Positions 434 to 6,186 of a stretch of 6,186 nucleotides of DNA are shown in pieces. Origin of the DNA: Escherichia coli (lineage in GTDB: Bacteria > Pseudomonadota > Gammaproteobacteria > Enterobacterales > Enterobacteriaceae); NCBI RefSeq assembly GCF_003334765.1, contig NZ_QOWT01000062.1; one strand, 5' to 3'. A program made the position numbers and the translations under genes. Each line of letters starts with the position of its first letter. Position 1 is the first letter of the stretch. The notes beneath the pieces were generated by a model that did no database searches, was not told the origin of the DNA, and was given only the letters and a program-made list of their open reading frames with translations.

Positions 434-459
434 GTAAGCGTACAGCCTGAACCGTCTGG
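434..459 (+). repeat. IS66 left terminal inverted repeat (IRL)
   Basis: First 13 bp (434-446) are a perfect inverted match to 2710-2722. Further inward the match is imperfect, so the inner boundary is approximate. Confidence 0.7.
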
Positions 460-504
460 TCAGAATCTGACGAATTAGACAAAGTGGTGTCCACCAAATA
501 AGTA

Positions 505-906
505 GTGGGAACCAAAGTGTCAGATATGCAGAAAAATGTGACTCCCGGCAGGCGAAAAGGCTGCCCTAATTATCCTCCCGAATTTAAACAGCTGCTTGTT
601 GCTGCCTCCTGTGAACCCGGGATATCCATCTCAAAACTTGCTCTTGAAAATGGCATTAACGCCAATCTGTTGTTCAAATGGCGACAACAATGGCGCGAGG
701 GAAAGCTGCTATTACCTTCTTCAGAGAGCCCCCAGCTACTTCCTGTGACTCTCGATGCAACTGCCGAACAGCCAGAATCGCTCGCAGAGGCCCCGGAAAC
801 CCTCAGTATCAGCTGTGAGGTAACGTTCCGGCACGGGACGCTCCGCTTCAATGGCAATGTCAGCGAAAAGCTCCTGACTCTGCTGATACAGGAACTGAAG
901 CGATGA
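505..906 (+). CDS. tnpA: IS66-family accessory protein TnpA (Orf1)
   Basis: ORF track 505..906. Position as first ORF inside the IS66 IRL and coupling to tnpB fit IS66 Orf1. The track start at 505 is a GTG; an in-frame ATG at 526 (MQKNVTPGRRKG...) is an alternative start. No strong Shine-Dalgarno for either. Confidence 0.8.
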   Translation: MGTKVSDMQKNVTPGRRKGCPNYPPEFKQLLVAASCEPGISISKLALENGINANLLFKWRQQWREGKLLLPSSESPQLLPVTLDATAEQPESLAEAPETLSISCEVTFRHGTLRFNGNVSEKLLTLLIQELKR

Positions 907-1250
907 TCCCGTTACCTTCCGGGACCAAAATTTGGCTGGTTGCCGGTATCACCGATATGAGAAATAGCTTCAACGGCCTGGCTGCGAAAGTACAAACGGC
1001 GCTGAAAGACGATCCCATGTCCGGCCATATTTTCATTTTCCGGGGCCGCAGCGGCAGTCAGGTTAAACTGCTGTGGTCCACCGGTGACGGACTGTGCCTC
1101 CTGACCAAACGGCTGGAGCGTGGGCGCTTCGCCTGGCCGTCAGCCCGTGATGGCAAAGTGTTCCTTACGCAGGCGCAGCTGGCGATGCTGCTGGAAGGTA
1201 TCGACTGGCGACAGCCCAAGCGGCTGCTGACCTCCCTGACCATGCTGTAA
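903..1250 (+). CDS. tnpB: IS66-family TnpB (Orf2)
   Basis: ORF track 903..1250 (115 aa). ATGA overlap with the tnpA stop at 903-906 implies translational coupling. Size and sequence (MIPLPSGTKIWLVAGITDMRNSFNGLAAKV...) are typical of IS66 Orf2 as I recall it. Confidence 0.85.
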   Translation: MIPLPSGTKIWLVAGITDMRNSFNGLAAKVQTALKDDPMSGHIFIFRGRSGSQVKLLWSTGDGLCLLTKRLERGRFAWPSARDGKVFLTQAQLAMLLEGIDWRQPKRLLTSLTML

Positions 1251-1278
1251 ATCTCTTTATCCTGGTTGTCACAGAATA

Positions 1279-1298
1279 AGCCCGGTAAAATACGGGCT
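1279..1298 (+). promoter_or_regulatory. hairpin (6-bp stem AGCCCG / CGGGCT, 8-nt loop) ending one base before the tnpC start codon
   Basis: Seen: AGCCCG(1279-1284) GTAAAATA CGGGCT(1293-1298) then T, then ATG at 1300. It occupies the position where a ribosome-binding site would be; no canonical Shine-Dalgarno is visible. A regulatory role is inference. Confidence 0.3.
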
Positions 1299-1299
1299 T

Positions 1300-2685
1300 A
1301 TGAACGACATCTCTTCTGACGACATCTTCCTGCTGAAACAGCGCCTGGCCGAACAGGAAGCGCTGATCCACGCCCTGCAGGAAAAGCTGAGCAACCGGGA
1401 GCGCGAAATAGACCATCTGCAGGCGCAGCTGGATAAACTCCGCCGGATGAACTTCGGCAGTCGTTCCGAAAAAGCCTCCCGCCGTATCGCACAAATGGAA
1501 GCCGATCTGAACCGGCTTCAGAAAGAGAGCGATACGCTGACTGGTAGGGTGTATGACCCGGCAGTACAGCGTCCGTTGCGTCAGACCCGCACCCGTAAGC
1601 CGTTCCCTGAATCACTACCCCGTGACGAAAAGCGACTGTTGCCTGCGGCGCCGTGCTGCCCGAACTGCGGCGGTTCACTGAGCTATCTGGGCGAGGATAC
1701 CGCCGAACAGCTGGAGTTGATGCGTAGCGCCTTCCGGGTTATCCGGACGGTACGGGAAAAACATGCCTGTACTCAGTGCGATGCCATCGTGCAGGCACCT
1801 GCACCTTCGCGGCCCATCGAGCGGGGTATCGCCGGACCGGGGCTGCTGGCCCGCGTGCTGACCTCGAAGTATGCAGAGCACACCCCGCTGTATTGCCAGT
1901 CAGAAATATACGGCCGGCAAGGTGTGGAGCTGAGCCGTTCACTGCTGTCGGGCTGGGTGGATGCATGCTGCCGGCTGCTGTCTCCGCTGGAAGAGGCGCT
2001 TCATGGCTATGTCATGACTGACGGCAAACTCCATGCCGATGATACCCCGGTCCAGGTACTGCTGCCGGGTAATAAGAAGACGAAGACCGGGCGGTTGTGG
2101 GCGTATGTTCGTGATGACCGCAATGCCGGGTCAGCGTTGGCACCTGCAGTGTGGTTCGCTTACAGCCCGGACAGAAAAGGCATCCATCCGCAGACTCATC
2201 TTGCTTGCTTCAGCGGTGTGCTGCAAGCGGATGCGTACGCCGGGTTCAACGAGCTGTATCGCAATGGTGGGATAACGGAAGCTGCCTGCTGGGCTCATGC
2301 CCGCCGAAAGATCCACGATGTGCACGTCCGCATCCCGTCAGCACTGACGGAAGAAGCCCTGGAGCAGATCGGTCAGTTGTACGCCATAGAGGCGGATATA
2401 AGGGGAATGCCGGCAGAGCAGCGGCTTGCTGAACGTCAGCGAAAAACGAAACCGCTGTTGAAATCCCTGGAAAGCTGGTTGCGTGAAAAGATGAAGACCC
2501 TGTTCTTCGGCTCTGGCCATGGTGGTGAGCGGGGAGCGCTACTGTACAGCCTGATCGGGACGTGCAAACTGAATGACGTGGATCCAGAAAGCTACCTTCG
2601 CCATGTGCCTGGCGTCATAGCAGACTGGCCGGTCAACCGGGTCAGCGAACTGCTTCCGTGGCGCATAGCACTGCCAGCTGAATAA
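1300..2685 (+). CDS. tnpC: IS66-family transposase TnpC (Orf3)
   Basis: ORF track 1300..2685 (461 aa), the longest ORF in the element. N-terminal heptad-like, leucine-rich region (LLKQRLAEQEALIHALQEKL...), a CxxC...CxxC zinc-finger motif (CCPNCGG ... CTQCD), and an acidic-residue-rich core consistent with the IS66 transposase. Ends 12 bp before the IRR region. Confidence 0.88.
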   Translation: MNDISSDDIFLLKQRLAEQEALIHALQEKLSNREREIDHLQAQLDKLRRMNFGSRSEKASRRIAQMEADLNRLQKESDTLTGRVYDPAVQRPLRQTRTRKPFPESLPRDEKRLLPAAPCCPNCGGSLSYLGEDTAEQLELMRSAFRVIRTVREKHACTQCDAIVQAPAPSRPIERGIAGPGLLARVLTSKYAEHTPLYCQSEIYGRQGVELSRSLLSGWVDACCRLLSPLEEALHGYVMTDGKLHADDTPVQVLLPGNKKTKTGRLWAYVRDDRNAGSALAPAVWFAYSPDRKGIHPQTHLACFSGVLQADAYAGFNELYRNGGITEAACWAHARRKIHDVHVRIPSALTEEALEQIGQLYAIEADIRGMPAEQRLAERQRKTKPLLKSLESWLREKMKTLFFGSGHGGERGALLYSLIGTCKLNDVDPESYLRHVPGVIADWPVNRVSELLPWRIALPAE

Positions 2686-2696
2686 CACATCCCCGT

Positions 2697-2722
2697 CAAT
2701 ACGGCCCTCGCTGTACGCTTAC
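2697..2722 (-). repeat. IS66 right terminal inverted repeat (IRR)
   Basis: 2710-2722 GCTGTACGCTTAC is the exact reverse complement of 434-446. Inner boundary approximate. Confidence 0.7.
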
Positions 2723-2923
2723 TTTTGTTCGGACTGCTTATGGCCTTTTTCCACTGGTGGCGCAGGAAAGTTAACCGGCTGCCACCATGGGATGACGTGT
2801 AAACCGTGCAGGCATGTTTTCACGTGGTGACGCTTTCATTGGGGGTCTACGCCGGAACCCCAATATTGTTCACATACATGAATTTGAAAAACTAAGCGAT
2901 ACTGCTGTCCGTACCTTATAAAC

Positions 2924-4297
2924 TTATTTCAACGCTTCCGGCAGCGTCACAATCCACAGTTCACTGTCAGACTCCGGTTTCTCCAGTGGCTTCACTCTGA
3001 GGGTCGTTTCAACCTGCTTGTCGTCAAGCGTCAGCTTTCCTTCCGCGTTCACCCGATAATCCTTGAATGTCTTGCCCTCGACCGGATGTTGCATCGCCAC
3101 CTTCACGCCAAAGTCGTTATCGTTCGCCACCGCCAGCGTTTTGCTGTCGATCAGCGCCAACCCTTCAGCCTTCTCCTGCTGCCAGCCCAAGGAGCGCAGA
3201 TCAACAACCTGCGTTTTCTGCGCAAGGGTAATGCCGCGCTGTGACAGGGTTTTCTCATCATCAAACTCCGGATACTCACCCGGCTTGTCGAAGCCTGACA
3301 GGTCGCTCGCCTTATTGAGATCGACCTCGTAAATCAGGTTACGCATTCTGTTGTTTTTATCTCTTCCCTGTTCGATCAGCAGGATGTGCTGGTTATCGAG
3401 CGCCACGATGTCTCCGATTTTAGCGTCGCTGTTTTTGCTGTAGGCCGCGCTGTCGATAGGATAACCGTACATCGCGGTTTTTCCGCTTGCCGGATCGAAG
3501 CTCACCAGACGCGTAAACAGCGCCTTTTTCTTGCTCTTAGTGTCGATATCCAGCGTACTTTGCACGGCGACAATAATACGCCCGTCCGGCATACGGGTGA
3601 GGCCTTCAAAGCCGCGGTTCGCCTGACGCCATTTGAGGATATTTGGCAAACCGCCCGCAATCGCTTTTTCCCCTTCCGCCGCCTGCGGACCGTGGATTGC
3701 CAGGATTTTCCCTTTACTGTCGATGTTAATCAGGAACGGGCCATACTCATCGCACAGCCAGTAACCTCCTTTACCATCCGGAGTGATCCCTTCCGTATCC
3801 AGCCCGCGATTATCCCCCTTCAGTCTATGTAACGTGTCGCTGAAGGCCACTTCATTGGTGGAGCCAATCACGTCGCTTGCCAGCGGCAGACCGTTGATCG
3901 CGCCTTTATCGTCATGCAGAGGACGGGGATCGATGGCCTCCGCTTTGCCGTTTTGTACACGAATCGTCATCAGCAGCGGCGCGAAATCTGGCGTAACGAA
4001 AATTTTAGTTTCGTTTTTCCCCTCTTTCGGTGAATCCGCGTTCGGACCGCGATCGGTAATGGTTGCGAATGTCAGGGCATCGCCCTGTTTACCGGTGAAC
4101 AGCAGGCCAGAACCTATCCCAACCGGAAGGCCGTTCGGGAATGCACTGGCAAATGCGCCGGCATAGTTCACGTGCGTGCCTTCTGGAAAACTGACGACAT
4201 AGCGCTCAGCCGTAGGTTGTGCCGCCAGGGCAGAGAAAGAGAGCGTACAACCGATTAGCACGGGAATAATTTTTCTTTTCATATTGTTAGCATCCAT
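2924..4297 (-). CDS. secreted or lipoprotein-type beta-propeller protein, phytase-like / SdiA-regulated-domain family (function unknown)
   Basis: ORF track 2924..4297 - (457 aa). N-terminus MDANNMKRKIIPVLIGCTLSFSALAAQP has a signal peptide with a lipobox-like LIGC; an alternative start is the internal Met giving 2924..4282. Motifs ANRGFEGLT and AEGLA resemble the GFEGL and AEG(V)A motifs I recall in E. coli YjiK (SdiA-regulated / phytase-like beta-propeller clan). Family assignment is from memory, not a search. Confidence 0.7.
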   Translation of the reverse strand: MDANNMKRKIIPVLIGCTLSFSALAAQPTAERYVVSFPEGTHVNYAGAFASAFPNGLPVGIGSGLLFTGKQGDALTFATITDRGPNADSPKEGKNETKIFVTPDFAPLLMTIRVQNGKAEAIDPRPLHDDKGAINGLPLASDVIGSTNEVAFSDTLHRLKGDNRGLDTEGITPDGKGGYWLCDEYGPFLINIDSKGKILAIHGPQAAEGEKAIAGGLPNILKWRQANRGFEGLTRMPDGRIIVAVQSTLDIDTKSKKKALFTRLVSFDPASGKTAMYGYPIDSAAYSKNSDAKIGDIVALDNQHILLIEQGRDKNNRMRNLIYEVDLNKASDLSGFDKPGEYPEFDDEKTLSQRGITLAQKTQVVDLRSLGWQQEKAEGLALIDSKTLAVANDNDFGVKVAMQHPVEGKTFKDYRVNAEGKLTLDDKQVETTLRVKPLEKPESDSELWIVTLPEALK

Positions 4298-4397
4298 AAA
4301 GTGAAGATCACACTACACCATAAAGAAGAAACGAGTCAGGAAAATGACATCGAATGGCAACATGCGCGGGCCTGAGGCCAAAGAAATGTAAAACACT

Positions 4398-4415
4398 GTT
4401 GTTATTTGTAACAAC
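4398..4415. promoter_or_regulatory. perfect 7-bp inverted repeat GTTGTTA-TTTG-TAACAAC, candidate operator upstream of the beta-propeller gene
   Basis: Seen: GTTGTTA (4398-4404) and TAACAAC (4409-4415) are exact reverse complements with a 4-bp spacer. It lies about 100-115 bp upstream of the minus-strand gene start (4297 or 4282) in an AT-rich intergenic region. Confidence 0.3.
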
Positions 4416-4545
4416 GGAAACATTTACGGAAATTATTTGTCTTTCTTCGTGATCAAAAATGCTGTGTCTTGTTGGATTGGAGTGATGAGGGCTGCGTTTA
4501 GGAAACGCCCTATATTGTACGGTTGCATTATCGCGGTAGGGGTAA

Positions 4546-4695
4546 TGCACGTGTCAGTATGATGAGCTGACCACACTCACGTGGGTGGACTGGTATAACA
4601 ATCGACGATTGCTGGAAAGGCAGGGCCATATCCCACCGGCAGAAGCAGAAAAAGCTTATTATGCTTCCATCGGAAACGATGATCTGGCAGCCTGA
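4546..4695 (+). pseudogene. C-terminal remnant of an rve/DDE-type (IS3-like) transposase, 5' portion missing
   Basis: Open frame with no start codon translates to CTCQYDELTTLTWVDWYNNRRLLERQGHIPPAEAEKAYYASIGNDDLAA*, stop at 4693-4695. The W-x-x-YNNRR...PAE pattern matches the conserved C-terminal end of integrase-core transposases (IS3 family OrfB). No upstream transposase body is present. Confidence 0.5.
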
Positions 4696-5014
4696 GTTCA
4701 CAGATAAAACACTCTCCAGGAAACCCGGGGCGGTTCAATTGCTGGATAAGATCATAACGATACACCGGGTTAAACAGGTGGTCACTGCTTCACTGAAGCT
4801 GCGTGATTATGATGGTCAGGTAGCAGAAGCTATGCCCATGATACAAAAATGACGAAAGCCGAAATGTCTGAAAGCGTGTGTATTACCTGAAAATATGACC
4901 GGCTCCGGGGTACGTAACCGATTCAACAAAGCCAATCGATATTACAAAACGAGAGGAACTATATATTTCGTTTTCAGATAAGACTCCTTGAGAGATTATC
5001 TTTTATGTAAAATC

Positions 5015-5308
5015 TCAAATATCACCTGATGTAATGTCAATGATAATATTAAGTGCGCTCTGAACAACATCTTTCTTGGTGTGATTAACATCTGACAAAA
5101 AGAACATCAGCTTCTTTATTATGTTCTTGTTGTTTATTATTTCACGCTCACAGAATAAAGCGTTGACTGCCTCTTCTATGACATTTCTCTCGTAAAAAAA
5201 TTGAGAGTTAGCTTCATATAAAATATTGGCCAATTTTTCACCAAAAACCATATTATAATAATCACTGTGCATCTTTCTCCCCCAGGGTTCAGTCAATAAT
5301 TTTACCAT
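5015..5308 (-). CDS. hypothetical protein (97 aa) in an AT-rich segment
   Basis: ORF track 5015..5308 -. Complete ORF with an in-frame stop two codons upstream of the ATG. Codon usage is very AT-rich, in contrast to the IS66 region. No recognisable domain. Confidence 0.4.
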   Translation of the reverse strand: MVKLLTEPWGRKMHSDYYNMVFGEKLANILYEANSQFFYERNVIEEAVNALFCEREIINNKNIIKKLMFFLSDVNHTKKDVVQSALNIIIDITSGDI

Positions 5309-6017: not shown

Positions 6018-6040
6018 GGTAATGACTCCAACTTACTGAT
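6018..6040 (-). repeat. IS1 terminal inverted repeat (insB-proximal end)
   Basis: GGTAATGACTCCAACTTACTGAT differs by one base from the IS1 right inverted repeat as I recall it (GGTAATGACTCCAACTTATTGAT). Confidence 0.88.
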
Positions 6041-6186
6041 AGTGTTTTATGTTCAGATAATGCCCGATGACCTTGTCATGCAACTCCACCGATTTTGAGA
6101 ACGACAGTAACTTCCGTCCCAGCCTTGCCAGATGTTGTCTCAGATTCAGATTATGTCGCTCAATGCGCTGAGTGTAACGCTTGCTG
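6033..6186 (-). CDS. insB: IS1 transposase InsB, C-terminal part (5' end outside window)
   Basis: Codon-by-codon translation of the minus strand from the TAA at 6033-6035 reproduces the InsB C-terminal sequence ...[18 protein letters not shown]. Not in the ORF track because there is no Met in the window. Confidence 0.9.

Follow-up and report, generated by a model that had tools for sequence, protein, structure and literature searches.

A PF13449 gene with a predicted PhoB-dependent promoter

We analysed a 6,186-nucleotide stretch of Escherichia coli DNA (contig NZ_QOWT01000062.1 of assembly GCF_003334765.1; hereafter, the window) that encodes, on its minus strand, a protein of the family 'Phytase-like' (Pfam accession PF13449; WP_000823248.1). 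This propeller gene is an intact, previously annotated E. coli island gene. An open reading frame (ORF) of 457 codons spans 2924..4297 in the ORF listing of the window, and the first-pass annotation, made from the sequence without database searches, read it as a 457-amino-acid protein. The ORF exists as described, but its first start codon is probably unused. The MKRK ATG at 4282 is most likely the true start and the in-frame ATG at 4297 spurious, because nearly all orthologs in the N-terminal alignment begin with MK(I/R)K and because, in the upstream alignment, [Enterobacter] lignolyticus has an AAGGA Shine-Dalgarno sequence in place of the ATGGAT found upstream in E. coli. The Prokaryotic Genome Annotation Pipeline (PGAP) uses the same start, which gives a coding sequence of 452 amino acids (2924..4282, minus strand).

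The promoter region of this gene contains a real regulatory signal (4317-4350) that the first-pass annotation overlooked and that we report here as a new result. A PhoB site (Pho box) is a pair of direct repeats of 11 bp, in each of which a CTGTCAT core is accompanied by 4 bp that are less well conserved (PMC2648988, PMC4415409). One conserved island emerges from an alignment of the upstream regions of E. coli (ATGTCATTTTCCTGACTC), [Enterobacter] lignolyticus (ACGTCATTTTCCTGACAC), Cronobacter (CTGTCATTAATCTGTCAC), and Serratia (TTGTCATCAAATTGTCAT). We predict, from conservation at orthologous positions, that the E. coli island is a Pho box in the −35 position (ATGTCAT-TTTC-CTGACTC; 4333..4350, minus strand). 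Its first half-site is the consensus TGTCAT and its second half-site has two mismatches. A −10 hexamer (TATGGT; 4317..4322, minus strand) lies 10 nt downstream of the box, recognised by the geometry of box, 10 nt, and TAnnnT, and transcription would be expected to start near 4310. The spacing between box and −10 equals that of the E. coli phoA promoter.

The evidence for this promoter is comparative. We scanned 80 further orthologous loci with a simple Pho-box score (maximum 13). In about 70 of the 80, two TGTCAT half-sites 11 bp apart are followed by exactly 10 nt and TAnnnT, 44-62 nt before the ATG, and most of these loci score at least 11. The geometry spans Enterobacter, Pantoea, Buttiauxella, Cedecea, Serratia, Yersinia, Cronobacter, and Mangrovibacter and recurs further out, in Wohlfahrtiimonas, Tolumonas, and a Neisseriaceae metagenome-assembled genome. 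A homolog with 44% identity has an identical promoter layout. Among 3204 control windows from the same loci, 0.06% score at least 11, and likewise 0.06% score at least 9.75 when the geometry is required. Across 88 loci, all 23 exact matches to TGTCAY-N5-TGTCAY lie at the promoter position on the gene strand, with none elsewhere. Judged by this comparison across orthologs, the region has the sequence features that define a Pho-regulon promoter. A generic sigma-70 scan of 2680-4620 found no −35/−10 promoter, and a PhoB-dependent promoter would not be expected to show one.

Family, export, and predicted fold

PF13449 is the protein's one Pfam match (E 7.4e-43, residues 60-396) and covers the full-length model (positions 4-284 of 284). 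This supports the family suggested in the first-pass annotation from GFEGL and AEG motifs, which are present as RGFEGLT and KAEGL. The second family suggested there, SdiA-regulated (Pfam accession PF06977), gives no match in the Pfam search, and neither do the hidden Markov models (HMMs) of beta-propeller phytase (Pfam accession PF02333) and PhoX. No NCBIfam or PADLOC model or family matches the protein.

A search of 1.84 billion cluster representatives identified 2060 relatives at E ≤ 1e-3. Enterobacterial orthologs share 60-91% identity and occur in Enterobacter, Lelliottia, Pantoea, Pluralibacter, Scandinavium, Buttiauxella, Cedecea, Cronobacter, Serratia, Yersinia, Pectobacterium, Brenneria, and Mangrovibacter. 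The nearest relatives of the E. coli protein are from Enterobacter (89-91% identity), and orthologs at about 50% identity are found in Wohlfahrtiimonas, Tolumonas, and Neisseriaceae. Two database entries resemble contamination or mis-binning: a 78% ortholog with an enterobacterial-type Pho box labelled Chryseobacterium sp. 18061 (our locus L034, contig CACSKA010000015.1), and a contig binned as 'uncultured Ruminococcaceae' (L007, CAJKJS010000287.1) that matches the E. coli module at 99% identity, even across the IS3 junction described below.

PF13449 proteins in general share with this protein a full-length HMM match, a predicted fold, secretion, and a link to phosphate limitation. The enterobacterial clade differs from other members in being compact and single-domain (about 450 amino acids) and in having its own predicted PhoB promoter. 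Long homologs carry fused 5'-nucleotidase, metallophosphoesterase, and ParB-like nuclease domains. In the cyanobacterium Nodularia, a protein annotated as phytase-like is strongly induced under phosphorus limitation (log2 about 5.5; PMC9846622), and Nodularia nsp7010, described as an 'atypical alkaline phosphatase', is a phosphorus-limitation-induced PF13449 member. A Synechococcus WH8102 protein annotated as phytase-like or esterase-like-activity-of-phytase is also strongly induced under phosphorus limitation (PMC11020310). In the literature searched, which did not cover supplementary tables or regulon databases, we found no characterisation of the enterobacterial clade and no link to the Pho regulon. 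A study of pst in Citrobacter rodentium mentions no such gene.

The protein begins with MKRK, followed by IIPVLIGCTLSFSALA and AQP, and is predicted to have a Sec signal peptide of about 22 amino acids (4217..4282, minus strand), with MKRKIIPVLIGCTLSFSALA before the cleavage site and AQP after it, as placed by conservation of the AxA site. The first-pass annotation proposed a lipoprotein on the basis of the sequence LIGC, which does match the lipobox pattern [LVI][ASTVI][GAS]C. This look-alike sits within the hydrophobic core of the signal peptide, however, with 11 residues before the cysteine from the MKRK start. Of the 19 orthologs aligned, 7 (Pseudescherichia, E. ludwigii, Buttiauxella, Cronobacter, Serratia, Yersinia) have threonine, serine, or alanine in place of the cysteine, whereas the Ala-Ala pair in the AxA site varies little or not at all among the same 19. 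Because the cysteine is unconserved while the AxA site is conserved, the protein is best read as a Sec-exported, soluble periplasmic protein cleaved by signal peptidase I, and it is probably not a lipoprotein. The N-terminus contains no twin-arginine motif, and residues 5-16 form a low-confidence helix in the structural model.

We built an AlphaFold2 model on a 95-sequence alignment (predicted local distance difference test 96.3, predicted template-modelling score 0.92). Its fold is the same as that predicted for family members in the AlphaFold database (template-modelling (TM) scores 0.85-0.95). The nearest folds in a model-based structure comparison include YjiK, glutaminyl cyclases, and the calcium-dependent nucleotidase SCAN-1, and the placement of the protein in the YjiK/phytase-like fold clan by the first-pass annotation was correct. 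The C-terminal domain of YjiK (PDB 3qqz, Pfam accession PF06977) has the same fold as the modelled protein but differs from it in sequence (17% identity, profile E 0.22 to 3qqz) and in size, the propeller protein being about 200 residues larger. Human SCAN-1 (PDB 2h2n) is 13% identical, with no relationship detected at the sequence level. Neither beta-propeller phytases nor PhoX appear within the top 60 fold matches.

Inner strands in the model occupy residues 59-66, 163-168, 225-230, 288-294, and 374-377, and each of the five begins at a nearly invariant residue (S58, E164, E226, D291, or E373). R78, R258, K371, Y180, and Y274 are also conserved in the 95-sequence alignment and accompany this acidic ring. 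Further conserved motifs are DRGPN, DEYGP, NRGFEG, and NDNDF, and additional strands (24-31, 103-121, 417-446) form an add-on in the model. Glutaminyl cyclases and SCAN-1 are five-bladed propellers. The model likewise suggests a core of five blades whose acidic residues are arranged in a ring, and the six blades expected in the first-pass annotation are probably wrong, given these fold matches and the five conserved inner-strand motifs.

The upstream palindrome and the island

The first-pass annotation also proposed dedicated regulation through an upstream palindrome. The palindrome is present as a perfect 7-4-7 repeat (GTTGTTA-TTTG-TAACAAC; 4398..4415) and precedes the ATG at 4297 by 101 nt and the ATG at 4282 by 116 nt, but it occurs at chance level. 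The window contains 7 perfect inverted repeats with arms of at least 7 bp and loops of 0-10, compared with 4.45 ± 2.6 in shuffled sequences, and 17% of shuffles have at least one in the 281-nt upstream region. In Enterobacter and Lelliottia the corresponding stretch varies freely without compensation and is not palindromic (GTTGTCACAGATAAAGAC, TGTGTCACACAAAACAAC, and others). Together, the shuffle statistics and the Enterobacter alignment speak against the palindrome as an operator. It is most likely a chance feature in the variable middle of a conserved block.

This block (4381..4440, minus strand) was defined by alignment with Enterobacter and Lelliottia and has the form TAATAATTTCC ... TGTTTC ... 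TTTACATTT. Both TAATAATTTCC and TTTACATTT are invariant or nearly so among 12 Enterobacter/Lelliottia upstream regions, and these conserved flanks of the palindrome may bind something. The spacer between block and Pho box is variable, and E. coli is without 12 nt of the Enterobacter spacer. By inspection of the alignment only, the block contains a CRP-like half match (TGTTT-N6-TCACA in Enterobacter, TGTTT-N6-TTACA in E. coli), and the Enterobacter block also holds TTTACA followed by a possible TATAC −10.

Further upstream, a terminator-like scan and the alignment identified a small hairpin (GCGTTT-AGG-AAACGC; 4494..4508), and Enterobacter upstream regions have a CGTTTAG...CTAAACG inverted repeat at the equivalent place. 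The hairpin roughly marks where the native upstream DNA kept in E. coli ends; beyond it, the alignment with Enterobacter is weak. It may represent a repeat element or else a terminator that served a gene once located upstream. Neither Rfam nor tRNA scans of the window gave a hit.

The IS flanks described in the first-pass annotation were found by sequence and annotation. On the 3' side of the gene, an IS66-family element (434..2722, plus strand) contains tnpA (526-906), tnpB (903-1250), and tnpC (1300-2685) and is bordered at 434 and 2722 by 13-bp terminal inverted repeats (GTAAGCGTACAGC). Its flanks (...aaatagtg / ttttgttc...) show no 8-bp target duplication that would match. Its tnpC is short (461 amino acids), and an identical short tnpC is present in ST131. 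Presumably this tnpC is internally deleted around KMKTL/FFGSGHGGERG relative to typical IS66 transposases, and the element is probably immobile. The IS66 insertion severed a DUF6404 gene, the 3' fragment of which (2725..2802, plus strand; PGAP annotation of an identical segment) is convergent with the propeller gene.

On the upstream side, about 280 bp from the gene, the module is bounded by the C-terminal remnant of an IS3-family transposase (4564..4695, plus strand), beyond which lies an IS5 remnant (4760-4890; both from PGAP annotation). Past the IS5 remnant are an AriR/YmgB-family gene, IS1 debris, and fecIRABCDE. The AriR/YmgB-family (biofilm regulator) ORF (5015-5308, minus strand) lies in a stretch of 32% guanine-cytosine (GC) content, compared with roughly 54% GC in the propeller gene, and probably joined the island through a separate acquisition. 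At the edges of the window, an annotated H3 chromosome that is identical here places the 3' end of a zinc-ribbon-domain gene (1-171) and an IS1 transposase fragment (6033-6186). The module is not a composite transposon, because its flanking elements belong to different families (an IS66-family element 3' of the gene, truncated IS3 and IS5 remnants 5' of it).

Of 5426 complete E. coli genomes, 2192, O25b:H4-ST131 among them, contain the segment 2803-4563 at ≥99% identity and with the same junctions, and it also occurs in 66 plasmid places. The gene is also orf34 of the SRL pathogenicity island of Shigella flexneri, beside orf35-37 (IS66) (PMC6980539). This is the same locus without difference, described only as encoding a hypothetical or putative periplasmic protein. 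Horizontal movement of this cargo, as the first-pass annotation envisaged, is thus borne out and already on record, and the locus is a fossil module of a mobile island. The promoter region can be aligned to Enterobacter. Across [Enterobacter] lignolyticus, Cronobacter, Serratia, and three distant homologs, the gene neighbourhood is not conserved and thus offers no operon partner from which function could be inferred. In the genomes compared, the propeller gene is organised as a stand-alone gene.

A candidate periplasmic phosphoesterase

We consider it probable, though by no means secure, that the propeller gene encodes a PhoB-controlled, calcium-dependent periplasmic phosphoesterase. Under phosphate scarcity, phosphorylated PhoB would bind the Pho box, which replaces a −35 element 10 nt upstream of the TAnnnT −10, and switch the gene on as a stand-alone PhoB-regulon member in Enterobacterales. 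The protein would be exported by Sec and its signal peptide cut at the AxA site by signal peptidase I. The conserved acidic ring would lie on the central face of the YjiK-like propeller and, with a Ca2+ cofactor and the conserved arginines, lysine, and tyrosines, would most likely hydrolyse a periplasmic organophosphate, either an ester or an anhydride. The released phosphate would then be taken up by Pst. Candidate substrates include phytate, phosphodiesters, and nucleotides or products of nucleic acids. E. coli probably acquired the gene and about 230 bp of native promoter region horizontally from an Enterobacter-like lineage, on the island with fecIRABCDE, and the IS66 and IS3 insertions would have framed the gene later. 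The ORF, its family, the class of fold, the features of the signal peptide, the conservation of the Pho-box promoter, and the distribution are results of the analysis; PhoB binding, enzymatic activity, Ca2+ dependence, and any remaining function of the weakened E. coli box are inferred.

Known phosphate-scavenging enzymes offer partial parallels. PhoA of E. coli, PhoX, PhoD, and Psip1 are secreted, as predicted for this protein, and the Pho box likewise takes the −35 position with phoA-like spacing. PhoX and Psip1 are calcium-dependent beta-propeller enzymes (PMC11098088). Beta-propeller phytases (Bacillus PhyC/TS-Phy), to which the Pfam name alludes, are also extracellular calcium-type propellers with many conserved aspartates and glutamates. 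The absence of a PF02333 match and of beta-propeller phytases from the top folds places this protein outside that family.

Several observations weigh against this assignment. We found no PF13449 member with a measured activity in PDB, NCBIfam, AFDB50, or the literature searched, and the AFDB50 neighbours, many from gut and environmental anaerobes, are all uncharacterised. Searches of PDB by sequence and by profile returned no solved relative, only generic blade matches, and Foldseek against PDB found only generic propellers with TM below 0.4. Expression data for the gene were likewise not found in the literature searched; to our knowledge K-12 is without the gene, so published K-12 data are uninformative. 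The E. coli box scores lowest of all orthologs with a box (9.75) and, taken alone, does not exceed the chance level (3 matches in the window compared with 1.48 expected). In the Enterobacter/E. coli clade, the second half-site reads TGACA (window 4334-4349; about 2950-2970 in our loci L008-L019), and the resulting TGTCA-N6-TGACA inverted repeat is kept across several genera. Such a site could suit a regulator other than PhoB, for example a dimeric one. Finally, three orthologs have no Pho box within 3 kb (Pectobacterium zantedeschiae, P. betavasculorum, and Samsonia; L058, L062, and L073, about 970-3000). These copies immediately follow two genes, one ExbB/TolQ-like and the other PLD/NucT-like with two HKD motifs. 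The arrangement is possibly operonic and hints that the breakdown of nucleic acids or phospholipids is coupled to energised uptake. The identity of these two genes rules out phoBR upstream of the Pectobacterium copies.

The weakness of the E. coli box raises the possibility that this copy lost PhoB control. The box would have decayed to CTGACTC since transfer, leaving the gene silent, constitutive, or under a different factor that acts on the conserved upstream block. The gene would then be a passenger of the fec island and contribute little to phosphate scavenging. Consistent with such decay, the E. coli box has one mismatch more than that of Enterobacter, part of the Enterobacter spacer upstream of it is gone, and the module is embedded in IS debris. 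We nevertheless regard loss of control as unlikely. The E. coli box has TGTCAT without a mismatch as its first half-site, retains the 10-nt distance to an intact TAnnnT −10, and needs no second strong repeat, as one weak repeat is tolerated in natural Pho boxes of E. coli. More than 2000 genomes, moreover, carry the ORF in intact form. A function other than phosphoester hydrolysis seems somewhat less likely again. The nearest folds include non-phosphatases (glutaminyl cyclase, lactonases, and NHL domains), and the protein could be another metal-dependent hydrolase or lyase (lactonase-like or cyclase-like) or a YjiK/NHL-type binding protein, with Pho control serving a different starvation response, for example envelope remodelling. 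Conservation of Pho-box control argues against this, as do the conserved arginine, lysine, and tyrosine residues beside the acidic ring, which would be expected for phosphate binding. By analogy, further hints of a phosphoesterase come from the induction of cyanobacterial family members by phosphorus limitation, from the fusions to 5'-nucleotidase, metallophosphatase, and nuclease domains, and from the likeness of the fold to that of SCAN-1.

Least credible, and in our view very improbable, is the picture drawn in the first-pass annotation of an SdiA-regulated/YjiK-type lipoprotein of the outer or inner membrane, with a dedicated regulator acting through the palindrome and a role connected with quorum sensing or host interaction. 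It accounts for the fit of LIGC to the lipobox, for YjiK as the best structural match, and for the perfection of the palindrome. The unconserved cysteine and conserved AxA site, the missing PF06977 match, and the chance-level, unconserved palindrome speak against its separate parts, and no regulator gene is adjacent in any genome examined. We saw no sdiA-related feature and no evidence of any kind for a quorum-sensing link; the promoter carries a Pho box instead.

The phosphoesterase reading bears on how PF13449 genes are interpreted. The gene itself is not new, being annotated in thousands of genomes, with its function and regulation unaddressed in the literature searched. The 'phytase' label of PF13449 rests on no tested evidence and is not usable for claiming phytase capacity, as some genome reports do. 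The conserved Pho box provides a testable hypothesis for an uncharacterised Pfam family with more than 2000 representative clusters, many of them from gut bacteria. More tentatively, and with our doubts slightly outweighing our confidence, enterobacterial PF13449 proteins may be an unrecognised, widely conserved member of the PhoB regulon and a further structural class of periplasmic phosphate-scavenging enzyme, a YjiK-like propeller that is apparently five-bladed, calcium-dependent, and unrelated to PhoA, PhoX, PhoD, or beta-propeller phytases. For E. coli, the locus suggests a candidate phosphate-scavenging enzyme in the accessory genome of major lineages, linked to a ferric-citrate uptake island. 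If this is true, E. coli and Shigella gained the enzyme on a mobile fec island that about 40% of E. coli genomes, ST131 among them, now carry, and the enzyme could give them access at neutral pH to the organophosphate pool of the gut, such as calcium phytate or nucleotides.

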